A stretch of DNA of 64,000 nt from a virus (lineage: Duplodnaviria > Heunggongvirae > Uroviricota > Caudoviricetes): the IMG/VR virus record IMGVR_UViG_3300033149_001657, positions 1 to 64,000 of that record; one strand, given 5' to 3'. Shown in pieces: positions 13,926 to 63,512 of the stretch. Position 1 is the stretch's first letter. Each line of letters opens with the position of its first letter. A program made the translations under genes and the position numbers. Below the pieces are notes generated by a model, which was not told the DNA's origin, did not search any database, and saw only the letters and a program-made list of their open reading frames with translations.

Positions 13926-14759
13926 TCATTCTTCATCAATCCTCCTAATAATATATGGACACTTAGAATAGCTCTTCATAGGATAGTAACTATCTATTAC
14001 ATTTAATATCTCATATGGCTCTTCAATTTTAGCTATTGAGGAAGAAAATGAGCATGGAGATATAGAGCCGTCTGGAAATACTGATATTATCTTTCTACCA
14101 CAACCACACTCTTCTATCTTTCCAATTTCAAGAGCTATACTTTCATCTACATATAAGTCAAATAGCACACTTGAAATTTTAATTGTTCTCTTTAACTCAC
14201 TAGCTCCATAATTTAGCTCATAGAACTTAGGTTGTAAAGCATAGAATTTTAGTCCTTCTGTTTTTAAATAGTTAAAGACTAAAGGCATAATTCCAAGAGC
14301 TATCTTATCCAGTATAAGGTAGTTTACTCCTACTTCAAAGTTAGACAAATTAGATAAGCTATCTATTGTACTAGATATGTTCCGTATTGAACCGTTAGAC
14401 TTAACCTTATGATGATCTACTGATACTGATACTAAGTCTACGTATTCCAATGATTCAATTACTTCTGAGTTTATTATTGAACCATTGGTAGTGAGAGACA
14501 CATTCATATCACAGTGTTTAGCTGTTTTAGCTAGTTTAGTTACTATCTTTGGAAATAATAGTGGCTCTCCACCACCTATGGCTATCTGTGGAATATTATA
14601 TTCACTAGCTGCCTTTATTAGATCACAGAACCAATCCACATCTTTCTCTACAGTAGATTTGTGAATATAGCAGAATGGACAATCGAAATTACATTTGGTA
14701 GTAAAGTGTATCGATAATACTTCAATCATCATATCCATTATTTCTGCACCATTCTTCAA
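13926..14759 (-). CDS. radical SAM enzyme (CxxxCxxC), possible C-terminal auxiliary Cys cluster
   Basis: Motifs CNFDCPFCY, GGGEPLL, and C-terminal CGCGRK..SPCSF. Confidence 0.7.
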   Translation of the reverse strand: MKNGAEIMDMMIEVLSIHFTTKCNFDCPFCYIHKSTVEKDVDWFCDLIKAASEYNIPQIAIGGGEPLLFPKIVTKLAKTAKHCDMNVSLTTNGSIINSEVIESLEYVDLVSVSVDHHKVKSNGSIRNISSTIDSLSNLSNFEVGVNYLILDKIALGIMPLVFNYLKTEGLKFYALQPKFYELNYGASELKRTIKISSVLFDLYVDESIALEIGKIEECGCGRKIISVFPDGSISPCSFSSSIAKIEEPYEILNVIDSYYPMKSYSKCPYIIRRIDEE

Positions 14760-18344: not shown

Positions 18345-19292
18345 CTACTCATCGGATTTTGGTAAAGAGTATATCATTGGATTTCCTTGTTCATCCGTAG
18401 ACACTATTAGAACATCAACATTCGGTGCTATCTCTTTAAGAGCTTCTAAATATAGATATAATTTTGCTAAGTCCTCTGCATCATCGATACCAGCTGCTCT
18501 AGCTATCATCTCTATAGATTCTCTAGTAGCATTAGCAACTATCAATCTAGTCTCAGCTTCAGCTTGAGCTATTCGTATCTTCTGTTGTGCCTCTGCATCA
18601 GCCAGAACCAATATACGTTCTCTCTCAAACTCTGCTTGTATTTTCTGTTGTTCAGCTACCATCTTATCTTCGATAGCCTGCATGTATTTCTCTGGTAATG
18701 CTATATTCCTTAAATCAAATTCCAAGTGTATTAGAGCTCCTTTAAGAGACTCTGTGTTACGTAGAGCATCGAATACAGCTTCTTGAATAGCATACGCTAC
18801 TTCCTCTCTCCTAGTTATCATCTGTGTAGCTGTAAAGTTCTTAGTAACAAATCTGATAGTCTCTCTTACTGTAGAAGCTATAGCTCTGTCTTCCCAGTCT
18901 AAGTTTGGATACGATAGGTAAAGATCTTTGAGTTTTTCTGGACATAGACTCCATCGTACCATAATGTCTATAGTAGCTTCTAGCTGATCAGACGTAAAGC
19001 ACTTAACAGCAGGGTATTCTGCATAAATATCAGTTCCGTCTCCCCACATCCCCACAGATTCTGTAGCATAGTAAATGTATACTGTTCTATACCATGGCAT
19101 CTTTACAAACCACGTAGGTCCAAGTATTGGACCAGATATTGTACCAGTCATTGGATCCACTAACAATACACCATATCCTGTATCCACTGATCTAAACATG
19201 GTACCAAAGAATATACCTAGAGATGCACCAGCTACTATACCAATCACTAGTAGTATTTTTAGGAGTCTATTTGATCTATCATTCTCCCACAT
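18345..19292 (-). CDS. SPFH/band-7 (prohibitin/HflK-stomatin) family membrane protein
   Basis: N-terminal TM helix; Ala/Glu/Gln-rich coiled region QKIQAEFERERILVLADAEAQQKIRIAQAEAETRLIVANATRESIEMIARAAG typical of band-7 proteins. Confidence 0.75.
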   Translation of the reverse strand: MWENDRSNRLLKILLVIGIVAGASLGIFFGTMFRSVDTGYGVLLVDPMTGTISGPILGPTWFVKMPWYRTVYIYYATESVGMWGDGTDIYAEYPAVKCFTSDQLEATIDIMVRWSLCPEKLKDLYLSYPNLDWEDRAIASTVRETIRFVTKNFTATQMITRREEVAYAIQEAVFDALRNTESLKGALIHLEFDLRNIALPEKYMQAIEDKMVAEQQKIQAEFERERILVLADAEAQQKIRIAQAEAETRLIVANATRESIEMIARAAGIDDAEDLAKLYLYLEALKEIAPNVDVLIVSTDEQGNPMIYSLPKSDE

Positions 19293-26414: not shown

Positions 26415-27032
26415 CTATAAGCTAGATTTATCTCTTCCACGTATCTTACTATACTTATAATTATTTATAGCTTTCAGAATCTCATTGATGTCTACTGGAC
26501 AGTAGTTCCACACATCAACACCGACATTTACTAGATACGTTCTAGATGTCTTCTTTACTTTCCATCTATCATGAACATGTCCTACTAGATTGATAGGATA
26601 GTCTGGATTGTGATCAATGGGATTGTGAGTACAGTAGATATCATTGCCACCTATTCTGAGAACAAGAGACTGGATAGGAGTGTTAAGTGAGTTGTTGTGA
26701 TCATGATTACCTTTCAGCAGAACAATATTGCCATTGAGCTGGTCAAGATAGTAACTAGGCTTATGGAGCTTCTTGTAAAACATGAAGTCTCCTAGATGAA
26801 TAACAATATCATGTTTATCTACTCTGGAGTTCCATAGCTGAATCAGTCTTATATCCATGTGATCAGCTGACTTGAATGGTCTATTACAATACTTTATAAT
26901 ATTCTCATGGCTAGCTACTAAATAGTAGCTAACTTTCATGACCAAAGTGTGTATCCGATGTAAACCAAGTCTTGATATCTCATCCCTCCCAGAATTAGAT
27001 ACTATCCTCCAGTTCGTATAAACACTGAACAT
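26415..27032 (-). CDS. calcineurin-like metallophosphoesterase
   Basis: Motifs HLGDF, LKGNHDH and GHVHD (the GDxHG / GNHE / GHxH set). Confidence 0.65.
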   Translation of the reverse strand: MFSVYTNWRIVSNSGRDEISRLGLHRIHTLVMKVSYYLVASHENIIKYCNRPFKSADHMDIRLIQLWNSRVDKHDIVIHLGDFMFYKKLHKPSYYLDQLNGNIVLLKGNHDHNNSLNTPIQSLVLRIGGNDIYCTHNPIDHNPDYPINLVGHVHDRWKVKKTSRTYLVNVGVDVWNYCPVDINEILKAINNYKYSKIRGRDKSSL

Positions 27033-28293
27033 ACACTCTGTAGAGAAGTGAACCAGATATATCTCCTAGACTAGCAGCTAAAGAGGATAGAACCTCAGCT
27101 TTCTTTGACAAGTCCATACCTTTATTCCTTAGTTTAACCATATGAGATCTAACTACCTCTTTAAGATCCTTTGGTGTTGGAGCCAATCTGTGTCTGATGA
27201 TAGAACGTATCTTATTCTCTGATTGTTCTATCAGATCTGATTCTATATCCTCAGCAAGCTCCTCCTTTACTATCGGATAGAGTTGTTCTGGTGTAGAGTA
27301 ATGTGGATAATTCTCCTTAGCTTTACGTACAGCTTTGTATATGATAGATACTGGTATCCCTTTAGATGCTATCTTCCATGACTTCTCTTTTATCTCATCA
27401 CATTTTAGCTTACAGAAATGAACATCCATATCAATATTTGAGAAATGTTTAGCTACAAACCCTTCGTATCCATCCTCTCCAAGATACTCCTTAGCTTCAT
27501 ACTCTATACGTTCTATCTGCTTACGAGTAAGAATACCAGACCACATCTCTTCTACGAATGGAATGTCATACTCTTGACAGAGATCTCTTGACTTTATAGG
27601 ATTAAGAAACTTAAGAGTACAAGTATCTACCACATCAAATACTTTGAAAGCTATAGGTATAGAATACTGTATGAACTCTCCTCTATTCAGATATCCGTAT
27701 AGTTCTCCAAATACTAAGTAATCATCTTTACATACTCTCTCTATTTTCTTAAGTAGCTCTCCATTATCTATCTTAGTAAACAGCTCTTTCCAGTGTGATA
27801 CTTGTCTCTTCATAGCCTGTAGAGATTGAACGTCCCATCTAGGCATCAATCTCGTTTTGCCCATTATTTCTCCATTAGGTAAAAGAAACAATCCAATATT
27901 AGTACCATCATATTTAGCTTGAACTATCACTTCTTTATCTATTACTTTTGTATCTAATGAGTAACGAATTTTTGGATAGCCTCTGATAACAAATGACTTA
28001 CTATCAAATAGTGAGAATATAGATCCCATAAGAGAGTTTCTTTTAAGATATATTACTCCAGTCCAGTCATGTCCATTCATTTTAAAGTGAAAGCTTCTTA
28101 TCTCACTAGGCTTACACTTTAGATGTTTAGTTACTATCGTTCTTATATTCTGTAATCCCTTTGTATGTTTTAGATCTTCTCTGATATTAGATAGTCGTTC
28201 AGATAACTCACTCATCATCATCCTTGCTCCAGATATTACGAAACTCTCCTCTTTCATCATTATCAATGATATGCCATAAAGTACAATAGTCAT
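26995..28293 (-). CDS. ATP-dependent RNA ligase (Rnl2-like nucleotidyltransferase); true start probably at an internal Met
   Basis: Motif I AKYDGTN, motif III FGELYG, motif IV EGFVAKH, motif V CKLKCDE. The N-terminus overlaps the upstream ORF 28208-28486. Confidence 0.6.
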   Translation of the reverse strand: MTIVLYGISLIMMKEESFVISGARMMMSELSERLSNIREDLKHTKGLQNIRTIVTKHLKCKPSEIRSFHFKMNGHDWTGVIYLKRNSLMGSIFSLFDSKSFVIRGYPKIRYSLDTKVIDKEVIVQAKYDGTNIGLFLLPNGEIMGKTRLMPRWDVQSLQAMKRQVSHWKELFTKIDNGELLKKIERVCKDDYLVFGELYGYLNRGEFIQYSIPIAFKVFDVVDTCTLKFLNPIKSRDLCQEYDIPFVEEMWSGILTRKQIERIEYEAKEYLGEDGYEGFVAKHFSNIDMDVHFCKLKCDEIKEKSWKIASKGIPVSIIYKAVRKAKENYPHYSTPEQLYPIVKEELAEDIESDLIEQSENKIRSIIRHRLAPTPKDLKEVVRSHMVKLRNKGMDLSKKAEVLSSLAASLGDISGSLLYRVYVQCLYELEDSI

Positions 28294-44995: not shown

Positions 44996-46399
44996 CTAGA
45001 ATAGGACAAGTGGTTTTCTCCTTGTTCTAGCTACCTTGTAATAGATATCAGCAGTTTGTCTGTTCTCTTCTATATCCCTAAGAGAAAGCATCAATGCAGT
45101 TACTCTATCATCTCCCTTTCTCTTATCCCATGTATAGAGTCTAAGCTCATTTAATAGTGGTTGAAATTCCTCTGGTACTAAGACTTTCTCTTTTTCAAAC
45201 AAAGTCTTCATTCTAACCTGTAGTGTTCCAAGTTCCTTAGCTAGATCAACAGCTTCAGTCATTATTCCTCTCATCCGTAGTCTATCCACTGTTCTCTGAG
45301 ATTCTCCTTTAGGATTCAAATCCACAAATACATAGTCTGGTCTATATCTCAAGGCATAAGCTTCTATCCAATCCTGTATGTTCTCATATTTGATTCTATT
45401 CCATTCAACTACATCAATGATTCTATACATATCGTCGACCTTGTTAGCAACTACAATAACAGACAGATCTCTATATCCGTAGTCTATACCAAATATGATC
45501 TTACCATTTTTCATCTCAGAATCATATCTAAACTTATGTATTCCAATAGAACACTTTCTAATGTCATCTATTGGAACCACAGTATTGGTAACTGGGTATG
45601 GAATACCCTCCCAGAACACTCTGAACTGTTCCTCAGTAAGATTTCTCTTAGCCTCTTCTATCTCCTCTTCTGTAAATCTAGGACAGTCCATAGCTGACCA
45701 TGAGAATCTAGCCCATGTAGTAGGTTTCCTCTGATCTTCAGATAGATCAAAATAATCTGGATATGTCTTCTTGTCCATCCACATCTCAACAAACTTTGAC
45801 GTGTATTCCATTGGAGTACCACTGAGAATGATTAAAGAATCATCGAATCCACCAACAATACGATAAGTATCGTTTATAGTGAAGTCATCTACTAATGCAG
45901 CTTCATCTATTATAACAGCTGGCACATGTTTACCCTGAATAGATTTGAGTGACAGAGGAAGAGCTCTAACTACGGACTTGGTCTTAAATCTTGTAATAGT
46001 CTTTAGAACGTCACCATCTATCACTTCACCAAATATCTCATTCTCTTTGAGAGGAACAGCTGAATACTCATATAGTGATCTAGACTGCTCAGCTGATCCA
46101 GACACTATAACTACATCAAATTTCTTCCTATGATAGTAACTATAAACCAAAGCTAACCACAAAGCTATGCATGCCAGTAGTTTACTCTTTCCAGTGCCTC
46201 CTGCCGAAACTATCATGATTCTTCTTAGTTTTAATTCTGGAAGATATGACATCACTCTAGCTTGATATGGAAATGGCTCTTGATGATATAAGTCTCTGAA
46301 AAAAGAAGAGGGATCTTTGTACCACTGAACTATCTTTAGTTGTATTGGTATTGTCATAAGTCTATCCTTCTGAGAATACTTCTTCCCATCTCTCCACAA
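44996..46399 (-). CDS. terL: terminase large subunit (TTG start, overlaps small subunit)
   Basis: Walker A SAGGTGKSK; Walker B AVIIDEAALV; C-terminal nuclease-like acidic motifs (IDYGYRD, D..D). Confidence 0.8.
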   Translation of the reverse strand: MWRDGKKYSQKDRLMTIPIQLKIVQWYKDPSSFFRDLYHQEPFPYQARVMSYLPELKLRRIMIVSAGGTGKSKLLACIALWLALVYSYYHRKKFDVVIVSGSAEQSRSLYEYSAVPLKENEIFGEVIDGDVLKTITRFKTKSVVRALPLSLKSIQGKHVPAVIIDEAALVDDFTINDTYRIVGGFDDSLIILSGTPMEYTSKFVEMWMDKKTYPDYFDLSEDQRKPTTWARFSWSAMDCPRFTEEEIEEAKRNLTEEQFRVFWEGIPYPVTNTVVPIDDIRKCSIGIHKFRYDSEMKNGKIIFGIDYGYRDLSVIVVANKVDDMYRIIDVVEWNRIKYENIQDWIEAYALRYRPDYVFVDLNPKGESQRTVDRLRMRGIMTEAVDLAKELGTLQVRMKTLFEKEKVLVPEEFQPLLNELRLYTWDKRKGDDRVTALMLSLRDIEENRQTADIYYKVARTRRKPLVLF

Positions 46400-46901: not shown

Positions 46902-47639
46902 CTATTGAAATTCAAAATCCATTATAACACTTATAGCTTGATTCTCTCCAACTACCACTGTTGATCCAGTAAACTCATGGAACTTAATGTCTCCAGGAGA
47001 AGAAATGTATCCTTCAGTTATAGCACTGAAATTAGTGTAGGTTCCAGGAACTTCAATTCCAGTTCCTGTTTGCATTACACGTAAGGTAGTTTCATTTATT
47101 ATGGTATTAGCTGTCAACACCATAATAGTTGAAGACCCATCTACTGTAGCACCAATGTATGCAATATAAGTATCATAGTCGTCACCTATAGCTCCTAGTC
47201 TAGATGCACATATTACATTGCCATCTTCATTGAGACCTGAAAAAGCAAACTTGACTTCTAGTATAAGATCCTGATCCGAACCTAATACTATAGTGGCATT
47301 AATCGAATTGTGATATTCACTAGGAGAGTTAGAACTACCACACATTACAATCGAATATGATCCAGGAGTAGATATAGTAGTCGATGTAATCACCAGTGTG
47401 TTATTGTTTCTTGTAGGAGTCTCTATATCTATAGTGGTTAATGAACCATCTTTAATAACTCTCATTTCATCTATTGGATAGTATCCAGTAATTCCACCCA
47501 CTAGACCAGCTACTTGTTTCTTACCCCAAGTAGTTACTGTCTGAGATGGTTCAATTGTACATCCTATGGTACAGTCAAGCTTTCTATCAATTATGTAGTA
47601 TTCAAACATTTCATCTATTTTAATAGGTATATTTACCAT
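46902..47639 (-). CDS. Ser/Thr-rich beta-structured virion-associated-like protein (paralog of 47652-48107)
   Basis: Shared segment GKKQVAGLVGGITGYYPIDE vs GKEQIAKLLGGIGAYSINQ. Confidence 0.4.
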   Translation of the reverse strand: MVNIPIKIDEMFEYYIIDRKLDCTIGCTIEPSQTVTTWGKKQVAGLVGGITGYYPIDEMRVIKDGSLTTIDIETPTRNNNTLVITSTTISTPGSYSIVMCGSSNSPSEYHNSINATIVLGSDQDLILEVKFAFSGLNEDGNVICASRLGAIGDDYDTYIAYIGATVDGSSTIMVLTANTIINETTLRVMQTGTGIEVPGTYTNFSAITEGYISSPGDIKFHEFTGSTVVVGENQAISVIMDFEFQ

Positions 47640-47651
47640 ACTATATCACTC

Positions 47652-48107
47652 CTAAGTTACTTGGAAATCTACATCAGCCCACCATTGTTGACCAGATGAA
47701 ATAGTTATATCTATACTAATAGAATTGTGAACATTAACTGTGTCTCCAGAATTTCTACACTTAATCCAGGTGTATTGTCCAGCTGTGGTCCAAGGATTTA
47801 GAGAGTTACTTACTCTCAGAGTACCCGTAGCTATGTAAGATGTAGAAGCACTTTTCCATCCTCCAGTATCAGTACCTATCTGGTTAATTGAATAAGCACC
47901 TATCCCTCCAAGTAGTTTAGCTATCTGCTCTTTGCCCCAATCTGTTAATGAAGCATGACACTCCTTTCCAACTATTTTACAAAGAAACTGTTTCCATAAT
48001 GGAACTTTCACATCTATTCTTTCATCACGTACTATCCTTCCTGTCTCTTTGTCAACTACAACTATTCTAAGAGATTCCTTAATTTTAAGTGATTCTCTCA
48101 TATACAT
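47652..48107 (-). CDS. paralogous Ser/Thr-rich protein; start trimmed to internal Met
   Basis: The track ORF extends to 48224 through a hydrophobic junk N-terminus overlapping the plus-strand rSAM start. The internal ATG (MYMRESL, or MRESL at 48101) has a GGAGTG SD. Confidence 0.4.
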   Translation of the reverse strand: MYMRESLKIKESLRIVVVDKETGRIVRDERIDVKVPLWKQFLCKIVGKECHASLTDWGKEQIAKLLGGIGAYSINQIGTDTGGWKSASTSYIATGTLRVSNSLNPWTTAGQYTWIKCRNSGDTVNVHNSISIDITISSGQQWWADVDFQVT

Positions 48108-48207
48108 CACTCCAGTTATCTTAATAAATAATCCTCCATTCAGATAAATCTTTTTATAAGAAGAAATATAAACAATAACGAAAATAACAATACAAAGAGG
48201 TGATTGA

Positions 48208-49455
48208 ATGCCTATACTAATCAAAATGAATCTTGGATGTAATTTTGAGTGTGAGTATTGTTATCAGAAACCAATTAGAAAGCTAAAAGATAAAGAATGG
48301 AATCTTAAAAGAGTTAAAGAGACAATTAGAAATCTAATATTAACCATGCCAAGAGGATCTAATCAACAGATAGTTGTTCATGGAGGAGAACCATTAACTA
48401 TGCCAATAAATATACTTGAACAGTTACTAGCTCTTTCTTACGAGCTTACTGGTAAATCTAGTATACAAACAAATGGATATCTAATAACTGATAAACATAT
48501 TGAACTATTTAAGAAATACAAGACTAGCGTAGGAATATCAGTAGATGGTCCATTTCAATGTAATGTTTTACGTGGTAAAGGAAACTTGAAAGATAGAAAG
48601 AAACAAACAGAGAGAGTACTTAAGAACTTAAACAATCTTGTAGAAGCTGGTGTTTCTACTTCAGTAATAACAGTAGTACATAAGAAAAATGCAATTGGAA
48701 TAAATAGAGACTTATTAAAGAGTTTTATTTTGGATCTTCATAAGAAAGGTATCCATGGAAGACTGAATCCATGTGGAACAGATGATCCAGAGATCTCTCT
48801 TACTATTGAAGAAGCTATAGATTTCTATACTGACATGTACAAGTTTATGGAAGAGAATGGAATCTATGGATGGTCACCATTCATCGATATATTAAATTCA
48901 CTACAGAGAAAATCATGTGTATGTACATTTAGTGGTTGTGATCCATACTGTACGCCATCAGCTATTTCAGTACTCCATGATGGATCTCTTGGAGTATGCC
49001 TTAGATTATACAATGATGGTAAAGTCTATCTAAGAGATACTACACCTACTTCAATGAGAACACAACTCCTTAAAGAGACAGAATGTAAAGGTTGTAAATG
49101 GTTTGATTATTGTAAGGGAGGATGTAGTGGACTTAGTATAAATTCAGATTGGAGACACAAGGATAGATTCTGTGAAGTATACAAAGCTCTATTTGAATTA
49201 GCACATAACACTCTAAAGTTTGTTGGAATACACCCCCCATCCGTATCACAAATCTCAAGATCAAGATACGAACATTTAGATCATGGTATTAGACACCTTG
49301 ACAGTGATATTGAAAACGATCATACGGATGGAATCAAGCACTCAGACACTGGAACCACTCACCTAGATAGTAACTTCTACTCAAAGTCTGATCATTCGGA
49401 TGGAGAAAGACATGTAGATGGACCAATAGAACATTTAGATAGTAATTGGAGGTGA
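48208..49455 (+). CDS. radical SAM / SPASM-domain enzyme with C-terminal His/Asp-repeat tail
   Basis: Motifs CNFECEYCY; GGEPL; SPASM-like CKGCKWFDYCKGGCSG; roughly 60-aa tail with repeats HLDxG/HLDSN/HSDG/HTDG. Confidence 0.7.
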   Translation: MPILIKMNLGCNFECEYCYQKPIRKLKDKEWNLKRVKETIRNLILTMPRGSNQQIVVHGGEPLTMPINILEQLLALSYELTGKSSIQTNGYLITDKHIELFKKYKTSVGISVDGPFQCNVLRGKGNLKDRKKQTERVLKNLNNLVEAGVSTSVITVVHKKNAIGINRDLLKSFILDLHKKGIHGRLNPCGTDDPEISLTIEEAIDFYTDMYKFMEENGIYGWSPFIDILNSLQRKSCVCTFSGCDPYCTPSAISVLHDGSLGVCLRLYNDGKVYLRDTTPTSMRTQLLKETECKGCKWFDYCKGGCSGLSINSDWRHKDRFCEVYKALFELAHNTLKFVGIHPPSVSQISRSRYEHLDHGIRHLDSDIENDHTDGIKHSDTGTTHLDSNFYSKSDHSDGERHVDGPIEHLDSNWR

Positions 49456-49460
49456 AATAA

Positions 49461-50234
49461 ATGGAGCCTTTTACTAGAATATTATGGTTTGATCAGAAGA
49501 CAAAGCAGATATGGAAAAGACAAATTGAACAAGCTAGAAGACTCTATGAAGCTGTAGAGTTTGCTACTTTTGAAGCTGGTATGAGAGATGTCTATGTTAT
49601 GCACATATATCCAGAGAAGATATCTCAGCAACTAGAAATGATAGCTAAAGGTAAGTATGTTTTTCTTCCTATTCTGAAGAGTAAACGCTATTCTGGATTC
49701 TCTCACAGACATATACCACCAAAACCTGGTGATCCATATTTCATTTACGGAGTAGTAGCCAGAAATCTGGAGGATGCTGAGAGGTTCAAGGAATGTTCCA
49801 TTGGAAACAAGGTAGATCATGTAGAGATTGGAAGATTACTTGGATATCCTGAATGTTGTACAGAATTCTTTGATAAAGTCTGGAATAAGAAAAGCATAGA
49901 TCCAATCTATGAAGCTTATGGTTCAGAGACTTCTATTCATCCATTCTGCAATCAAGCTTTAAGATACTTTGGCATTAGACTAACACCTCATCTTGTTTGC
50001 TCTCCAACATGCAAGAGAACTATTGAAATGGGTAAGAAGTGGTTCAAAGTAGCTGAATCAATAGACTATGGATCTGCTCATACTCTTTTGAAGTTACTAT
50101 CCATGCCGTTTAAATGGTCATGTCTAAATGGATGTGCAATTATAGACACTGAACTATTTAGAGGTGTAACTAATTCGGATAAATGTTCAGAGGAAAAGGT
50201 TGTGATAAATCATGGATGGAACAAAGAACTTTAG
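49461..50234 (+). CDS. Cys-rich protein (GYPECC motif), probable partner of the rSAM enzyme
   Basis: SD GGAGGTGA then ATG; motifs LLGYPECCTEFF, CSPTCKR, CLNGC. Confidence 0.45.
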   Translation: MEPFTRILWFDQKTKQIWKRQIEQARRLYEAVEFATFEAGMRDVYVMHIYPEKISQQLEMIAKGKYVFLPILKSKRYSGFSHRHIPPKPGDPYFIYGVVARNLEDAERFKECSIGNKVDHVEIGRLLGYPECCTEFFDKVWNKKSIDPIYEAYGSETSIHPFCNQALRYFGIRLTPHLVCSPTCKRTIEMGKKWFKVAESIDYGSAHTLLKLLSMPFKWSCLNGCAIIDTELFRGVTNSDKCSEEKVVINHGWNKEL

Positions 50235-50874
50235 ATATTGTGTAGCAACTCTTGTTGGGAGACACAAGATCTATAGTACGAAAGATTTTATAGAACATTT
50301 AGAAAGAGTTACTGTACAGCCAGAGGTTATCGTTGTTTCATCCATACCAGAGATACATGAGATATTCTTCAGATATCAAAAGAATATACCAGTAGTTGGA
50401 ATAACTGGAGATCATGATGAAGGAAGAAATAGAATAGTAGACACTACTTCTGCTAGGGAATCTCTTAGACAATATATTATAAAGAATAACTATGAATGGT
50501 CACTATGGTTGGATAATGACATACTAGTACCATCCAATATAACTGAAAAATTCTTATCGTATCTAAGAAATAATCCTGAAGTTAAAATGGTTCATTCATA
50601 TCATCCAGCTAGACAGTATGGAGAGGAACTTAGACATGGAATCGGTAGTTCTTTTATTCACAAAGATCTTCTAGAAGCTTATCCATTTACTTATGCAGAA
50701 ATTAAAGGTCATTATTTAGGCGATGACCAGATTTGGTTACTAGTGATTAACCAATTAACTAGTATATATTATCCAAGATCCATCATAAGAGGAACACTAT
50801 TTGATCTTAAACATAAACGTGAAGATGGTACAGTAGCTTCCTTATCTGACAAATATAGAGATCAATTACTTTAG
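50212..50874 (+). CDS. DxD-motif nucleotide-sugar-transferase-like protein (GT-A-like, tentative), paralog 1
   Basis: Motif NYEWSLWLDNDILVP; paralogous to the next gene. Confidence 0.35.
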   Translation: MDGTKNFRYCVATLVGRHKIYSTKDFIEHLERVTVQPEVIVVSSIPEIHEIFFRYQKNIPVVGITGDHDEGRNRIVDTTSARESLRQYIIKNNYEWSLWLDNDILVPSNITEKFLSYLRNNPEVKMVHSYHPARQYGEELRHGIGSSFIHKDLLEAYPFTYAEIKGHYLGDDQIWLLVINQLTSIYYPRSIIRGTLFDLKHKREDGTVASLSDKYRDQLL

Positions 50875-50883
50875 TGACTAGAA

Positions 50884-51504
50884 ATGGAACCTTATATAGT
50901 TCTTACTCCATTTGGAGACCACAAACATTATGCTCTTAAAGAGTTTATTAGATCATTGAATAAACTTAGACCTCAACCAGAAATGAAGATTATATGTGCA
51001 GACTTGGACACAAAATACAAAGATGAATTAGAAAGTTACGATCTAGTAGTATATTACAGTCCAGAGATCTTCTCCCCTCCATCTTACCTGGAACGAATAT
51101 GTATGTCAAGAGAAATCCTAAGAAAGAAGTTCATTTATTCCAACTATGAATGGTCATTATGGATAGATTCTGATATTATAGTACCTCCAGATACTCCAAG
51201 AATTCTATATAAAATAGCTAAAGATAGTAACTGTCTGGTAGTCTCAAATGGATATCCAGGAAGCTACGGTCATGAACATGAGATCTGGCATGGATCTGGT
51301 GTTATGTTAACTAACAAGCTAGCTTGTACTGGTTCTAGATTTTGGGTAGCAGATTTCAATGGCAAGCACTTAAGTGAAGACTTTGTATTTCTAAGTATTT
51401 TAGATCAAGGTAGTTATTTTATAGAACAATATACTGGAAGAAAAGCCAGAATAGTGGGAGAATTCGTGAAAGTCAAACATCTAAGCCATAAACATAGTCA
51501 CTAA
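50884..51504 (+). CDS. DxD-motif transferase-like protein, paralog 2
   Basis: Motif NYEWSLWIDSDIIVPP; convergent overlap with the repeat-protein stop. Confidence 0.35.
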   Translation: MEPYIVLTPFGDHKHYALKEFIRSLNKLRPQPEMKIICADLDTKYKDELESYDLVVYYSPEIFSPPSYLERICMSREILRKKFIYSNYEWSLWIDSDIIVPPDTPRILYKIAKDSNCLVVSNGYPGSYGHEHEIWHGSGVMLTNKLACTGSRFWVADFNGKHLSEDFVFLSILDQGSYFIEQYTGRKARIVGEFVKVKHLSHKHSH

Positions 51505-52544
51505 GCTGTGTGTATATCACTCCAATCCTGATGAGGGTTAGCTCCATCTTGATGATCAGTCCAATCCTGATAGCTATCTGTCCAGTCTAGATGTGGTACT
51601 CCGTCATCACTATATACTACATTACTCCAATCTTCATGAGGAACACTATCTGTCCAGTCTTGATGTGGAGCTCCTCCACCACCTGCATCATTATGATCAG
51701 TCCAGTCCAGATGAGGAGGACCTGAATCTGAGTATGTTGCATCCGACCAGTCGCTATGAGCTACAGAATCTGTCCAGTCTGAATGTATACCATCTGTCCA
51801 GTCCTGATAGTCAGAGTGATATGGTGGTACATCTGAATAATCAAACCAATCAGTGTGGATACCATCAGACCAGTCATTATGACTATCAGTATGTGGTACA
51901 TTTGAATGACTGGTATCCGACCAATCAGTGTGTGGTCCAGAATCCGTATAGTCAGACCAGTCACTATGCACGTCAGACCAATCACTATGACTGTCAGTAT
52001 GAGGAGTATCTGAATGAGAACTATCCGACCAGTCTGTATGTGGTCCAGAATCAGAGTGTCCAGTATCCATATGATCACTCCAGTCCTGATACGTATCAGT
52101 CCAGTCACTGTAGAATGTCCAGTTCAAACCATCTGTTGTCTGCACAGACTCAGGTGCCAGAAACATCATCTTTACTTCATCTGTTGTGTGGAATGCCTCA
52201 AGTATTGAAGACTTCGATTTGAAGCTACCTACTGTCTGGATAGACTCATCTTTGAATAATGAAGTTAACAACCTATCATCTAAAGATACATCATGCTCTG
52301 TCAGGAATTTGTCTCCCCATGCAACAGCCCATATACTCCCATTATGGTATACTCTTACTGGACTAGCTAGTGGTGAAATAGTAGATACAAGTCTGAGACT
52401 GATGGTCTCTCCTCCAGTAAAGATTTTGACAAATGTACCTTCGGTAATGTCTTTCTCCCATGATAGAACTTTCCATCTAAGAACACGAGACTTTCCTTTG
52501 TATCCCACTCTTACCTTAGACCAATCAGTGCTCATCTTCATCAC
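51501..52544 (-). CDS. DW[ST]D / PH-repeat protein (347 aa) with globular N-terminal domain
   Basis: About 18 repeats of DWSD/DWTD separated by ..PH[TSLQ]. Overlapping shadow ORFs in other frames are side effects of the DNA repeats. Confidence 0.5.
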   Translation of the reverse strand: MMKMSTDWSKVRVGYKGKSRVLRWKVLSWEKDITEGTFVKIFTGGETISLRLVSTISPLASPVRVYHNGSIWAVAWGDKFLTEHDVSLDDRLLTSLFKDESIQTVGSFKSKSSILEAFHTTDEVKMMFLAPESVQTTDGLNWTFYSDWTDTYQDWSDHMDTGHSDSGPHTDWSDSSHSDTPHTDSHSDWSDVHSDWSDYTDSGPHTDWSDTSHSNVPHTDSHNDWSDGIHTDWFDYSDVPPYHSDYQDWTDGIHSDWTDSVAHSDWSDATYSDSGPPHLDWTDHNDAGGGGAPHQDWTDSVPHEDWSNVVYSDDGVPHLDWTDSYQDWTDHQDGANPHQDWSDIHTA

Positions 52545-55500
52545 TAAAGATCAGTTCTAATCCATATTTGCCCTTCAGCTGGTGACGATGGATCTGATGT
52601 TCGATTCTCCAGTCTCAGACCTATTGCCTGACCAGCTAGAAAGAGATCCTTCCATCTGTAAGTTGAGGTTCCCAAGTCGTAAGTATTGTCTGTAGATGGC
52701 AGTAACGACACATTAAGATTTAGATTCGTAGTTGTTAGTCTTAACAACTCTGAGAGAGAAGTATTCAATATTCTGAACTTATCCGATACAACTATGCTCC
52801 TTGAATATCTTGATTTACCAGCCAGGTATAGAGCCCTTATTTCCTCTTCAGTTAAGGCTCGGTTGTAAATGCGAATATCGTCAGCAACTCCATCTAATCG
52901 CCATCCTACACAGTTACCAACAACTAATTTAAGGTTGTTATCAATACTACCAGTTACGGATGAAATATCTAAATATCCAGACTGCTGAACACCATCGATA
53001 AATGCATAACATTGGCCCAAAGCTCTGTTAAATACCACTGCAATATGAACCCATTTATTACGCCAATCAAGCGGTCGAGAACCTACATCACAAGGTACAA
53101 CATCAAAAACAGTATTCCCTTCGACGTCTCTAATTGCACATTTAATACCGTTTGATACATACCCATGCCCTATTTGAAATCCAGGATGTGGGTTTACTCC
53201 ACCATGAGCGTTTCCATGCCAGATACAACATGTCGTTTTTGGGTAGGTATAATCTCGGTGATAGAACCATCCAATCACAGTAAAACTGTTGGTTCCAAAA
53301 TCTAAACTTGAAGATGGACTACATTCTAGCTGGTCATTCTTACCGTCGAAACTTAAAGCTTTACCAAACTTCCCATCACACCAGTTGTCGCTGTAAACCG
53401 TAGTACCTTCCCCTTCATCGAAGCGTAGGCAAAGAACACGACCTCCGCCGACATCTTCGCCTTGATAAAGTTGCTGGATTTCCTCTTCGTTTAAGACTCT
53501 GTTGTATATGCGAACCTCATCAATAAGGCCATCCCAAGAGTCCATTGTCCTGTACCTTCCTACTTTGAGTGTGTTATCAGGTGAAATCCTTGGGTTGATA
53601 GTTCGTGGTGTGGAATCTCCCAAACTTCCATCCACATAGAGTAGTATCTGGTCAGATGTCACCACAAAGACAACATGATGCCATTCGCCGTCCGAAGTTC
53701 CGCTTACAGTAACATATTTACTAGCTGATCCGTCTGCTATTCGTCCACGAATTGCATTAGAATTCGGTAGGTATATCATGTAGCTTATATTATTGTCAAC
53801 GGTTTCGTCATCGTAACTGACCAACCCTCTATAACCGCTTACGACTGTAGTCTTAAACCATGCACTAATGGTGAATTCGGCTGACAGGTCTAATGAATCA
53901 TCATGAGGTACTTTGACATAGTCACTTACGTCGAAGCTCAACGCCTTCCCATATTTCCCATCGACCCAAGAAGCCCCGTAAACTGTTCCCGAAAGAGTAC
54001 CATAAACAGTTCCATCATTCCCATAAGGAGATTCGTCATAGACCGAAGTTCCAGTTCCTTCTTCAAATGGTAAGTAAAGCACAAGTCCATAGTCACTTGA
54101 ATAAGCATCGATGTATGGATTGTCCAGAATACCACTTATGAAGGCATCTCCACCAATATAGATATCTCTAGAGAGTCTTAAGTCTTGCCATCTATAGCTT
54201 GCTGAGCCGAGGTCTCTAGAAGCATCAACATCAGGAATTAAATCTTGGGCAAAAGAAGCAATGTTTTTTAGAATTTTTGAAGCATCTATAACTTCGGTTC
54301 CGCCTATCTTGAGGGAGCCTAAATCTCCAATACCCGCTAAGTAAAGGTCTTTCCACTTATAGCTTGATGATCCGAGGTCGTAGGCATTATCTCTCGAAGG
54401 AATAAGAGAGTAGGATGGAATAGGAATCATTACAAGCCAGTCTATGTAGACTCTTCCTGGAATATATTCGGGGTCGTCTCCTCCATGAAACCCATCGTCG
54501 TTGTTAGTTGCATTACTCCCAAAGTGGAACCGAACATCATCTTCTGGGTCCCAATCTGCATTTACTATTCCAGCATCAATTATTTGATAGCTTGTAGTTA
54601 ATTTATTTAAGATATCTACAGAGAATTCGGTTGTAGCATCTGTCCAATTATAGATAAGGATCCTTGCATCTCCAAGGCTTCCAGACATTTTAGCTCTGAG
54701 AAGAAGCATATATTTTCTGCCTGTCATGAAGCCTTCCATATTTCTAATAGAAAGAGAACCAGTCCACCCCTCCCAGTAGGTAAATGCTCGACCAAAGTTA
54801 GCTTCTACATCATCTACATACTCGCTTCCTGAATCTAAGCTAGCATTCCACAAGTCATTTTTACCAGCAACACATGAAAGCATATCATGAATGAATCCGA
54901 ACCCTACAACGTGATCTAAGAAAGCCCTTCCACCTACATATAGATCTTTCCACCGATAGCTTGATGAACCTAGATCTCTTGAATTATCTGCATCAGGGAG
55001 CAGGGTCTGAGCTACTGAGACAATATTCTGCAAGATTCTTCCGCTTGTAAGAACTTCGGTTCCAGCGACTTTGAGAGAGCCGAGATCGATTGCTCCAGCA
55101 AAATAGCCATCCTTCCACTTATAACTTGAACTACCGATATTATAAGCATTATTTGCTCCAGGTAATATCTGACCAGTATCCCCTCTTAACACTATTGTTT
55201 TAGTCCCGTCTGAGTTTCTTACATCAAGGTAATGTCCGTCAGGACTTCCCCAAACCTCAACTCTCTGAGCAATTCTTAGAACCAAATCCGCCCAGATGGC
55301 AGGATAGTTGCCAGCTCTTCCCTCTTCATCTATCGTTTCGAATTTTCCTATTTTAATCGGATGAGCTCCACAATAGAATTGTGATGGTTCACCAGTAGTC
55401 ACTATAGTTAATATGTTCTTCAATCTTCTAGTAGAGTCAATAACTTCGGTTCCACCTATTCTTAGAGATCCTATGTCAGCGTATCCGCTGAGAAAGGCGT

Positions 55501-55735
55501 TAAGCCACTTATATGTTGAAGATCCTAACGAGTATGTTCCACTAGTCTTAGGATAAATGTTTCCAGCATTCTGGATTGGATTACCATCCATATCTATATA
55601 TGTTGGTCTAAGATAGATAGAGTGATCTCCAATCTTGAATCCTTTCTTTAGTATATTCTTAACAAGAGATTCTAACCTATCTGAATCTAAAAGAAAGAGA
55701 TTACCAGATTCAATGTCATACTTAAAGTCTATCAT
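52544..55735 (-). CDS. tail fibre / receptor-binding protein with two LamG (ConA-like) domains
   Basis: Six repeats of the [YR][DN]LGSS[ST]Y[KR]WKDLYLAG type at the N-terminus; LamG-like blocks (TISAWFKTT..EWHHVVFVV..LYVDGSL and TVIGWFYHRD..WVHIAVVFN..FIDGVQQ). Confidence 0.6.
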   Translation of the reverse strand: MIDFKYDIESGNLFLLDSDRLESLVKNILKKGFKIGDHSIYLRPTYIDMDGNPIQNAGNIYPKTSGTYSLGSSTYKWLNAFLSGYADIGSLRIGGTEVIDSTRRLKNILTIVTTGEPSQFYCGAHPIKIGKFETIDEEGRAGNYPAIWADLVLRIAQRVEVWGSPDGHYLDVRNSDGTKTIVLRGDTGQILPGANNAYNIGSSSYKWKDGYFAGAIDLGSLKVAGTEVLTSGRILQNIVSVAQTLLPDADNSRDLGSSSYRWKDLYVGGRAFLDHVVGFGFIHDMLSCVAGKNDLWNASLDSGSEYVDDVEANFGRAFTYWEGWTGSLSIRNMEGFMTGRKYMLLLRAKMSGSLGDARILIYNWTDATTEFSVDILNKLTTSYQIIDAGIVNADWDPEDDVRFHFGSNATNNDDGFHGGDDPEYIPGRVYIDWLVMIPIPSYSLIPSRDNAYDLGSSSYKWKDLYLAGIGDLGSLKIGGTEVIDASKILKNIASFAQDLIPDVDASRDLGSASYRWQDLRLSRDIYIGGDAFISGILDNPYIDAYSSDYGLVLYLPFEEGTGTSVYDESPYGNDGTVYGTLSGTVYGASWVDGKYGKALSFDVSDYVKVPHDDSLDLSAEFTISAWFKTTVVSGYRGLVSYDDETVDNNISYMIYLPNSNAIRGRIADGSASKYVTVSGTSDGEWHHVVFVVTSDQILLYVDGSLGDSTPRTINPRISPDNTLKVGRYRTMDSWDGLIDEVRIYNRVLNEEEIQQLYQGEDVGGGRVLCLRFDEGEGTTVYSDNWCDGKFGKALSFDGKNDQLECSPSSSLDFGTNSFTVIGWFYHRDYTYPKTTCCIWHGNAHGGVNPHPGFQIGHGYVSNGIKCAIRDVEGNTVFDVVPCDVGSRPLDWRNKWVHIAVVFNRALGQCYAFIDGVQQSGYLDISSVTGSIDNNLKLVVGNCVGWRLDGVADDIRIYNRALTEEEIRALYLAGKSRYSRSIVVSDKFRILNTSLSELLRLTTTNLNLNVSLLPSTDNTYDLGTSTYRWKDLFLAGQAIGLRLENRTSDPSSPAEGQIWIRTDL

Positions 55736-62564: not shown

Positions 62565-63512
62565 CTAATATGGAAGATTAGCCCATGTACCACTGAAATC
62601 TTCAATCACCTTAATAGCATCATTTCCAGAGCTCGGTCTAGCTGAGAACGGGTACTCTCCCTCCACAGCATCAAGACCAGAGAGTTCATCTGGAAGCTCC
62701 CCAAACGTAACGTTGTTCAAAGTGATCTGTATTGTATGACTTGTCTTTATCAAATATACTTGTATAGTACATGTCTGTCTATTGATAACTATACTACTCA
62801 TTTGACCAAAGTTACCTCCAGTAGTCAGTCTTCCATTAACTTGAAGTCCTCCTTCCCTTATCTCAATTGGTCTATAGTCCTGAGCACCAGCTGACAGTCT
62901 AGCTTGAAGATTATTGTTAGTACTGATCTGAAGTCTAGTTATCATAGTAGCTGCAAACTGTCCATTTGGATGTATAACATCTATGCTTGAATGATAGAAT
63001 GAGAATGGTACAAGATTCATATTCAATGAAGGCTTGGATGATGCATTGGTAGGTATCGTTACTCCTCTACCAGCATAATTCAACTCTATCTGTACATCAG
63101 AACCTTGTTCAATAGTTATTTCAGCTGTATCTACTTTCATTCCATAGTATCCAAGACTGATGGTATTGCCATCCTCATCTGGATAGAGTCCTCTATAGAT
63201 GCTCATTGAAGGTAATGATGAAGCTGGAGAATACGTAACTGGAGTCGTAGAGGTATCAGTGGTAGATCCAAGAATATATTCAAATATTTTACCAGAAACC
63301 ATCTCTTGAGTCCATCTAGCAACTACTCCCTCTTCTAACCACGTAACTTTTCTCCAGTCTCTACTTCCACCAATCAGATCCTCTTCATTCCTATTTTCTG
63401 TAGTAGTAGCTGCCCAGTCTGTCAAGTAGTTAGGAAACGTGTTGGGAACAGTCCACTCTCCCCATGTATCCTCTTTTGCAAACTTAATCCACCTATCTGT
63501 GAAATAGCTCAT
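62565..63512 (-). CDS. putative major tail (tube) protein
   Basis: 315-aa beta-rich protein at the head of the tail module; SD GGTGGAGGAA; upstream 7-bp inverted repeat CCTAACA-CT-TGTTAGG. Confidence 0.4.
   Translation of the reverse strand: MSYFTDRWIKFAKEDTWGEWTVPNTFPNYLTDWAATTTENRNEEDLIGGSRDWRKVTWLEEGVVARWTQEMVSGKIFEYILGSTTDTSTTPVTYSPASSLPSMSIYRGLYPDEDGNTISLGYYGMKVDTAEITIEQGSDVQIELNYAGRGVTIPTNASSKPSLNMNLVPFSFYHSSIDVIHPNGQFAATMITRLQISTNNNLQARLSAGAQDYRPIEIREGGLQVNGRLTTGGNFGQMSSIVINRQTCTIQVYLIKTSHTIQITLNNVTFGELPDELSGLDAVEGEYPFSARPSSGNDAIKVIEDFSGTWANLPY

Follow-up and report, generated by a model that had tools for sequence, protein, structure and literature searches.

A three-gene set termed the 'rSAM module' has been noted in prophages and in two Thermus phages, Cumys and phiMa; its third protein was left as 'unknown', the repeat in that protein was not mentioned, and DNA modification was proposed as the function (Viruses 2024;16:1410, PMC11437467). 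Our literature searches turned up no account of HxD repeats or of phage tail proteins modified by radical S-adenosylmethionine (radical-SAM) enzymes. Here we describe a related locus in a 64,000-nucleotide stretch of a tailed virus (the window; positions 1 to 64,000 of IMG/VR record IMGVR_UViG_3300033149_001657, Caudoviricetes). In this locus a minus-strand gene (51501..52544) encodes a 347-amino acid (aa) protein with a C-terminal array of aromatic-x-Asp triplets, and four plus-strand genes (48208..51504), the first encoding a radical-SAM/SPASM enzyme, converge on it. The array is most likely the substrate of this enzyme, since characterised SPASM enzymes act on peptide or protein side chains and tandemly repeated short motifs are typical of their substrates. 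The locus is a member of the noticed but unexplained module. What appears to be new is that the array is recognised and described statistically and that it is proposed as a substrate.

The module is carried by the cultured Thermus thermophilus HB8 phages Cumys, phiMa and phiLo. The window enzyme resembles Cumys_12 (tblastn, 31.7% identity, 99% coverage, E = 7e-52) and an open reading frame (ORF) of locus L086 (blastp, E = 8e-58), and the second protein of the window cassette, which is DUF483-like, resembles Cumys_11 (blastp, E = 4e-44). In Cumys_13, an HxD array comes after three units of the form GSxW[IV]EG..L.Y[IL]D, and the module lies within the tail module, with the array gene placed behind those for the baseplate and tail collar. 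The window locus differs in that its array is Trp-rich (HxDWxD hexads), the genes are convergent, the N-terminal domain (N-domain) is another one and there are two additional genes for proteins resembling GT-A glycosyltransferases (GT).

An aromatic-X-X motif defines the triceptides, among them the His-containing types HAA, HNR and HTK (PMC11499958). Like the systems of the three-residue cyclophane-forming enzymes (3-CyFE: XyeB, GrrM/OscB, FxsB, YhhB, HaaB, HtkB and ChlB), the window locus combines a radical-SAM/SPASM enzyme with repeated His/Trp/Tyr-X-X triplets in a candidate substrate. That substrate, however, is a 347-aa viral structural protein (up to 1290 aa within the family) with at least 47 motifs and no leader peptide. 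Further differences are the invariant Asp/Asn at position 3, the DUF483 accessory protein and enzyme scores that fall below the family cut-offs. Membership of the triceptide class of ribosomally synthesised peptides that carry post-translational modifications (RiPPs) was rejected, as there is no short precursor of leader plus core and the N-domain is a structural module common to array-less homologues.

A second comparison is with the HXS antiphage system, in which HxsB and HxsC are reported to mature a full-size His-Xaa-Ser repeat protein, HxsA; the reported change in this protein is a gain of 8 Da together with processing, and thus differs from a simple -2 Da (PMC13128918). The resemblance lies in the radical-SAM maturation of a full-size His-x-X repeat protein at the phage-host interface. 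[quoted passage not shown] The window system, by contrast, is virus-encoded and set among tail-fibre genes, with HxD/WxD motifs and one radical-SAM enzyme plus DUF483. Membership of the HXS family was rejected because position 3 is Asp/Asn rather than Ser (for 97% of the His motifs family-wide) and only one radical-SAM enzyme is present. HxsB and HxsC were not among the 25 best NCBIfam matches, and NCBIfam gave no match for the repeat protein.

The anaerobic sulfatase-maturating enzymes (anSME) have a protein, not a small peptide, as their substrate and work by abstraction of a C-beta hydrogen, and their target motif in the sulfatase is C/S-x-P/A-x-R. Although an anSME (4k36) is the closest solved structure to the window enzyme by sequence profile, the array was rejected as an anSME-type target: it contains neither Cys nor Arg, so that the motif is absent, and no sulfatase was detected in the locus with Pfam or NCBIfam. 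Because it lacks the defining feature of each of these three families (triceptide, HXS and anSME), the window system is a variant of the radical-SAM/repeat-substrate kind that stands outside them.

An earlier sequence-only reading of the stretch had noticed a repeat array of about 18 DWSD/DWTD units following a globular N-domain. The array is genuine and is encoded on the minus strand, behind an N-terminal beta-rich domain and linker (aa 1-144, 52113..52544), at aa 145-343 (51516..52112); the count comes to 17 D-W-x-D units, namely 15 strict DW[ST]D, one DWFD and one DWSN. The unit boundary had been misplaced, as the 'PH' or 'HS' then taken to end the linkers is the His that opens the next unit. 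Every Trp of the array is preceded by [H/Y]-x-D, which gives a hexad, [H/Y]-x-D-W-[S/T]-D, as the core unit (17 hexads), and the short linkers between hexads are themselves mostly HxD or YxD triplets. The elementary unit is thus the triplet aromatic-x-[D/N], present 47 times, back to back, in 204 aa. These triplets contain 17/17 Trp, 22/23 His and 8/9 Tyr (47 of the 49 H/W/Y residues), and Ser or Thr directly follows Trp in 16 of the 17 units. Shuffling that preserved composition (20,000 rounds) gave a mean of 11.5 triplets (sd 2.5, maximum 22), and a mean of 0.21 (maximum 3) for DW[ST]D, which the array has 15 times. The array is about 23% Asp and about 11% His, has no Lys, Arg or Cys and carries a net charge of about -45.

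The array is a protein-level and not a DNA-level repeat. The 18-nucleotide (nt) hexad units have a mean identity of 71% with no two alike, the longest exact DNA repeat is 15 nt, array Ser residues are encoded by both AGY and TCN codons, and Tandem Repeats Finder detected merely a 2.2-copy, 21-nt stretch. Since the DNA units are this diverged and none are identical, the motif is kept by selection on the protein rather than by recent slippage.

The convergent plus-strand cassette had been overlooked in the sequence-only reading. Its first gene (48208..49455) encodes the 415-aa radical-SAM/SPASM enzyme (Pfam Radical_SAM and Fer4_12), the proposed array maturase, with the CX3CX2C motif at C11/C15/C18 and a full set of SPASM auxiliary-cluster cysteines that is invariant in 35 homologues. 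Its best NCBIfam matches are the cyclophane maturases AmcB, DynA, YhhB, GrrM/OscB, XyeB and FxsB together with anSME, all far below the cut-offs (54-96 bits against 310-450 for AmcB, DynA, YhhB, GrrM and XyeB). When the enzyme family profile was compared with the PDB, anSME 4k36 matched over the full length including SPASM (E = 6e-33), followed by the triceptide synthase ChlB (9gm3, E = 2e-20), which matched in the N-terminal half only. The enzyme also carries a C-terminal tail (aa 354-415, 49267..49452) with eight H-x-D motifs in its last 62 residues. This tail is kept across the family down to about 36% identity, typically as ..H.DG[IV]EH.DG..RHLDS or HGDSPHGDW..HGDS, and in L060, L061 and L063 it is expanded to 8-12 PHGDHTD units, i.e. 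an enzyme-array fusion. We speculate that the tail may serve for docking, act as a pseudo-substrate or be modified by the enzyme itself.

Several enzyme homologues are interrupted by inteins (Pfam Hom_end, LAGLIDADG_3 and Intein_splicing), namely P0053, P0057 and those at L007 8852..10990 and L003 13856..15733; in L003 a second intein-containing radical-SAM/SPASM gene and a GT4 gene adjoin the module. Inteins usually lodge in genes that are important to the virus.

Directly after the enzyme gene, the DUF483-like protein (257 aa, 49461..50234) contains an invariant GYPxCC motif and matches Pfam DUF483 at 25.4 bits (cut-off 25, E = 1.6e-5), a match shared by 37 of its 39 homologues. Its AlphaFold2 model is confident (predicted local distance difference test, pLDDT, 95.9) yet gave no informative fold match and no functional lead. 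The remaining two genes encode GT-A-like putative glycosyltransferases of 220 aa (50212..50874, DxD motif WLDNDILVP) and 206 aa (50884..51504, WIDSDIIVP), paralogues with 27% identity. The second matches Pfam Anp1 (E = 0.0013) and a PHROG glycosyltransferase (E = 4.8e-4), and the best PDB match of the pair is a weak profile match to PBCV-1 A64R (2p6w, E = 8.8e-4). The DxD motif (D101, D103) is invariant in four homologues. GT-like homologues were found in L001, L003 and L088 only. The two genes suggest an added glycosylation in the Trp-rich subgroup, the GT assignment itself being weak. Library scans of the window found no deazapurine or other DNA-modification genes beside the cassette. A reading of the cassette as a defence system was rejected, PADLOC having given just a generic radical-SAM-core similarity to pVip.

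The association of array and enzyme is not confined to the window. Three metagenomic enzyme homologues inspected by hand each adjoin a DUF483-like gene and a protein with a long H/W/Y-x-D array. A scan of IMG/VR with the enzyme gave 167 relatives, from which 80 loci were taken, and the three cultured Thermus phages were added. Each locus was given an array score, the count of [HWY]x[DN] triplets in the densest 100-aa stretch among its ORFs; the window scores 25. An array (score 13-31) was present in 62 of the 69 loci with a true enzyme homologue (61 non-redundant), its ORF mostly ending where the enzyme gene starts, and a DUF483 partner in 63 of the 69. Among the seven array-less loci, four extend less than 1.4 kb upstream, one scores 12 and two genuinely have no array. 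Loci with distant radical-SAM genes in the same scan scored 13 (L067), 12 (L071 and L078) or at most 9 without DUF483, and the score of L067 reflects a real array beside a fragmentary enzyme homologue. In L071 and L078 (7330..7728) a short ORF with GYxNH[TS]N repeats lies upstream of a distant radical-SAM gene (23% identity); this Asn-rich GYxNHxN repeat may be a counterpart of the array built on Asn, or the resemblance may be due to chance.

As a control, a generic-pattern scan of cellular genomes gave 80 SPASM loci, of which 79 contain unrelated enzymes and served as the negative set (1.1 Mb). These 79 score at most 7, whereas the one true homologue among the 80 (L090) scores 23, with the array directly upstream of the enzyme gene. 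The reciprocal search from the array side led to P0125, whose gene is directly upstream of an enzyme homologue that is followed by a GT-like gene. A natural control is provided by L089, a syntenic relative of the window (terminase 45% identical, same downstream small genes), where the array and the radical-SAM, DUF483 and GT cassette are absent together. At the level of gene content, these comparisons establish the aromatic-x-Asp arrays, this radical-SAM/SPASM clade and DUF483 as one predicted functional unit in the tail modules of diverse viruses.

Across 60 distinct arrays, Asp or Asn stands at +2 for 97% of about 2,400 His residues, and the middle residue is free. The arrays range from roughly 13 to 138 triplets and most are His-only pentads (xxHxD). 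Trp-rich hexad arrays occur in the window, L001, L003, L005, L009 and L088, and in weaker form in L007 and L090, a group that includes the enzymes closest to that of the window; over the family, enzyme similarity and array Trp content were not significantly correlated (rank correlation, rho = 0.19, p = 0.16). A further sub-type, with a 7- or 9-residue period AAHTDNTT(I/P), is found at L027 7952..9900 and also in L055, L014, L025, L026, L034 and L037; here two array genes stand in tandem, one copy having a Cys-rich C-terminus. Judged by its sequences, this sub-type shows that the spacers around the invariant H-x-[D/N] can differ greatly within the family.

No family was assigned to the repeat protein by Pfam, PHROGs, NCBIfam or PADLOC, and six other array proteins likewise have no PHROGs family. 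There was no match for the repeat protein by tblastn in 50,697 phage records, nor for the window by megablast of 20 kb, and an IMG/VR scan with the repeat protein as query was also negative. A word-index search of 5.8 billion proteins returned only the protein itself (the identical P0001, from one JGI contig), so that the comparison of repeat copy number among related isolates that had been suggested finds no close relative to draw on.

An exhaustive HMMER search of 1.84 billion representative sequences with the repeat protein did reveal more distant relatives, of two kinds. P0123 (41% identity over aa 4-150, E = 4.7e-20) and P0124 (E = 1.9e-8) share the N-domain, the proposed fibre anchor, and both end in a different, globular C-domain. 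P0122, P0125, P0126, P0127 and P0128 share the array, which is N-terminal to a baseplate/fibre-like body of about 600 aa in P0125 and P0127, in the middle of the 1025-aa P0122 ahead of a globular C-domain, and behind a small N-domain in P0126 and P0128. The arrays of P0122, P0125, P0127 and a 1290-aa protein of L003 are thus embedded in proteins of at least 1000 aa akin to tail-fibre or baseplate-like proteins. As far as domain order can tell, this variable placement shows the array to be a portable module and matches the modular pattern of tail-fibre proteins. A shaft-like region precedes the array, and a terminal globular domain follows it, in both P0122 and the 1290-aa protein, which suggests that the array serves as a shaft or spacer; that of the window would form the very end of the fibre. 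In the array proteins of bacterial phages (L086 6940..7971, which is Cumys_13; L017 9051..9986; L033, L056 and L069) the N-domain is made of 2-3 copies of a unit of about 35 aa, GS.W[VI]EG..LHY[IL]D..G..R; it is distinct from that of the window and has no PHROG match.

In the window the repeat gene directly follows the gene for a 1063-aa tail fibre (52544..55735, minus strand), whose stop codon abuts its start. The fibre has two LamG/concanavalin-like domains (Pfam Laminin_G_3, E = 1.9e-47) and fibre repeats, including five copies of a (S/T)YDLGSSSY[KR]WKDLY-type repeat, with PHROG matches to tail fibre, tail spike and virion structural proteins; a tail tube gene (62565..63512) was also found by library searches of the window. 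The fibres that precede array genes end in a conserved ..P..G.IW[IL]R[TS]DL (window 52544..55735, minus strand; L001 14630..18187; L005 4144..7314), and so does the fibre of L089 (65..904). Between the window and L089, the fibres share 77% identity in their last 60 aa and only about 28% elsewhere, and the N-domains, 41% identical, occupy the same position after the fibre, with a globular C-domain replacing the array in L089. The conserved fibre end looks like a docking site for the N-domain encoded by the next gene.

Overall, we favour with moderate confidence the reading that the 347-aa protein is a tail-fibre subunit with an array that serves as a radical-SAM substrate. The protein would be a distal subunit, its N-domain docked on the conserved C-terminal end of the LamG fibre, and its C-terminal 200 residues would hold an acidic aromatic-x-Asp array in place of a globular receptor-binding domain. 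The enzyme, acting with the DUF483-like protein, would modify the array as a protein substrate, and here the two GT-A glycosyltransferases would probably also participate. That radical-SAM enzymes are able to act on proteins follows from the HXS system, in which a full-size His-x-Ser protein is reported to be matured (PMC13128918). By analogy with the triceptide synthases and anSME, a C-beta hydrogen would be taken from the Asp (third residue) and this carbon coupled to the ring of the His, Trp or Tyr (first residue). Closing each triplet into a three-residue cyclophane would turn the flexible acidic chain into a stiff rod that withstands proteases and heat and could still chelate metals or carry sugars. 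Such an aromatic-to-Asp-C-beta cyclophane in each triplet is the leading guess and a tentative one; it is made because the invariant i/i+2 aromatic-Asp pair matches the aromatic-X2-X3 geometry of triceptides and because the closest relatives of the enzyme begin with C-beta hydrogen abstraction. It is similarly possible, if doubtful, that tailed viruses of bacteria, and probably of archaea, convert long (His/Trp/Tyr)-x-Asp arrays of their tail fibres into chains of three-residue cyclophanes by means of RiPP-type radical-SAM/SPASM enzymes and DUF483, giving a covalently stapled, poly-macrocyclic fibre of which the window would have a Trp-rich and also glycosylated variant. The virion location of the array protein we infer from gene order and domain fusions, and the substrate role, chemistry and glycosylation of the array are to be taken in the same way.

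Several points weigh against this reading. We know of no established case of a cyclophane with Asp at position 3 that is formed on His, Trp and Tyr alike. The closest full-length structural relative of the enzyme by profile is anSME and not a cyclophane synthase, and its best cyclophane-maturase match, AmcB, reaches 96 bits against a cut-off of 425, so that the chemistry is a guess. In the candidate substrate, a protein with a folded domain, neither a leader peptide nor a RiPP recognition element can be recognised, and single-sequence prediction with AlphaFold2 gave no usable model of this protein (pLDDT 38). Two loci with good flanks, L029 and L038, have the enzyme yet no array. In the window the array gene and the cassette are on different strands, which excludes co-transcription; L001 and phiLo share the arrangement. 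The whole module is known from sequence, and the published proposal of DNA modification cited cyanobacterial homologues that lie near deazapurine genes (PMC11437467).

If the array is the substrate, the chemistry may still be of another kind, such as anSME-like oxidation, epimerisation, C-methylation, a modification of His or Asp, or a different cross-link; this is a serious possibility, though we hold it to be less than probable. The full-length match to anSME and the sub-threshold scores against every family are consistent with it, as is the reported change in HXS of +8 Da plus processing instead of a simple -2 Da (PMC13128918). The absence of Cys, Arg and the anSME target motif from the array argues against an anSME-like reaction, and the only invariant positions, an aromatic residue and Asp at +2, have the geometry of the triceptide synthases (PMC11499958).

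It is unlikely that the array is an unmodified metal-chelating segment, with the His and Asp residues of three chains binding axial ions and the radical-SAM/DUF483 pair doing something else, e.g. DNA modification. His and Asp are classic metal ligands, abundant in an array that has no basic residues, and in the needle of the T4 long tail fibre HxH motifs of gp37 coordinate iron. The array likewise consists of short His-containing motifs repeated along a phage fibre, and metal ligation by its His and Asp is plausible; it differs from gp37 in its motif (HxD/WxD and not HxH), in having no sequence similarity and in its dedicated radical-SAM enzyme. Simple ion binding, as proposed from the sequence at first, leaves unexplained the near-obligate adjacency of array and enzyme in about 60 diverse viruses, the joint loss of cassette and array in L089, and the HxD tail, array fusions and SPASM peptide-maturase affinities of the enzyme. 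DNA modification has been raised for the module (PMC11437467), but no genes for it were seen beside the window cassette. The linkage to the radical-SAM/SPASM enzyme and DUF483, missed at the time, points instead to a radical-SAM-dependent modification, and the suggestion that the array is a candidate site of post-translational modification stands.

The O-glycosylation that had also been suggested finds some indirect support in the adjoining GT-A-like genes and in the Ser/Thr that follows Trp in nearly every unit. Taken further, the array could be a mucin-like spacer in which the GT-A pair decorates the Ser/Thr of W-[S/T]-D, as in SD-repeat adhesins, with glycosylation as the key modification; we regard this as distinctly unlikely. 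The GT-like genes do occur only with Trp-rich arrays (window, L001, L003 and L088), and PBCV-1 A64R and SdgA/SdgB, the latter glycosylating SD repeats, are reminiscent of the viral GT-A-like genes that here adjoin a Ser/Thr/Asp-rich structural repeat. That similarity is very weak and the window repeat is not an SD dipeptide. The GT assignment (E about 1e-3) is weak too, the arrays of L005 and L009 are Trp-rich without a GT, and most arrays of the family have neither a nearby GT nor conserved Ser/Thr. Glycosylation would fit the favoured reading of a radical-SAM substrate as an addition, not a replacement.

A slippage-prone contingency locus, in which changes in copy number shift host range or antigenicity, had been considered as well. 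The great differences in array length among relatives could be read in this way, but with DNA units so diverged, almost nothing for Tandem Repeats Finder to detect and no near-identical relatives showing variation, the idea is very improbable and slippage-driven copy-number variation is not borne out.

The two long overlapping ORFs pointed out in the sequence-only reading, one antisense (51593..52222, plus strand) and one out of frame inside the array (51761..52108, minus strand), exist and are, as it held, spurious by-products of the stop-poor composition of the repeat. By homology and gene order, the true coding frame is the 347-aa minus-strand frame, because in it the array is continuous with the homologue-bearing N-domain (the matches to P0123 and P0124), the motif recurs in unrelated tail proteins and the start sits at the fibre stop. 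That another frame or strand is translated instead can be dismissed as the least probable explanation: long ORFs are present in two further frames, but composition accounts for them, and only the 347-aa frame runs into the conserved N-domain and yields a peptide motif that dozens of further viral proteins share.

Should the array be a radical-SAM substrate, the chemistry of peptide natural products would have been recruited for building virus particles, which would be a new class of post-translational modification for phage structural biology. With cyclophanes formed along the fibre, it would be the largest triceptide-like substrate known and the first structural protein of a virion to be cross-linked by a radical-SAM enzyme. 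A modified array would also give a new answer to the problem of fibre rigidity and of heat and protease resistance, the family having members in Thermus phages and on a biogas-fermenter contig. A function would be provided for DUF483 and for a radical-SAM clade with more than 160 IMG/VR relatives, and the sole published suggestion for the module, DNA modification, would be corrected. Natural scaffolds with dozens of macrocycles per polypeptide would be attractive for enzyme engineering. The hypothesis is testable now, because cultured Thermus thermophilus HB8 phages carry the module.

The window has a low GC content (about 34%) and nearly all of its genes are on the minus strand. The listed start of the repeat gene is GTG, with alternative ATG starts 1 and 3 codons downstream. 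Its stop codon (TAG, minus strand, 51501-51503) overlaps that of the convergent second GT-like gene (TAA, 51502-51504) at 51501..51504, leaving zero intergenic space. A promoter and terminator scan of 47.5-52.7 kb gave counts at or below shuffle expectation, with no terminator-like site at 51501..51504.

Elsewhere in the window, a small radical-SAM protein (277 aa, 13926..14759, minus strand) has prokaryotic viperin and MoaA as its best matches. The viperin similarity (NCBIfam NF038283, E = 2.5e-22, below the cut-off; PADLOC pVip, E = 3e-24) covers the radical-SAM core only; a viperin-like enzyme encoded by a virus is unusual. An SPFH/Band 7 protein (E = 1.9e-21) is encoded at 18345..19292 and an RNA ligase (E = 1.2e-13) at 26995..28293, both on the minus strand. 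Between the fibre region and the large terminase gene (44996..46399) lie paralogous genes for proteins of 160-250 aa that are 31-44% identical and to which no family was assigned, two in the window (46902..47639 and 47652..48224, minus strand) and three in L089 (1964..3974). One of the closest relatives of the module is on a 92-kb contig that also encodes an MCM helicase (L001/L002 7129..9156), and the closest enzyme homologues are annotated as coming from Thermoprotei, Thorarchaeota and Bathyarchaeia bins, which hints that the clade of the window infects archaea.

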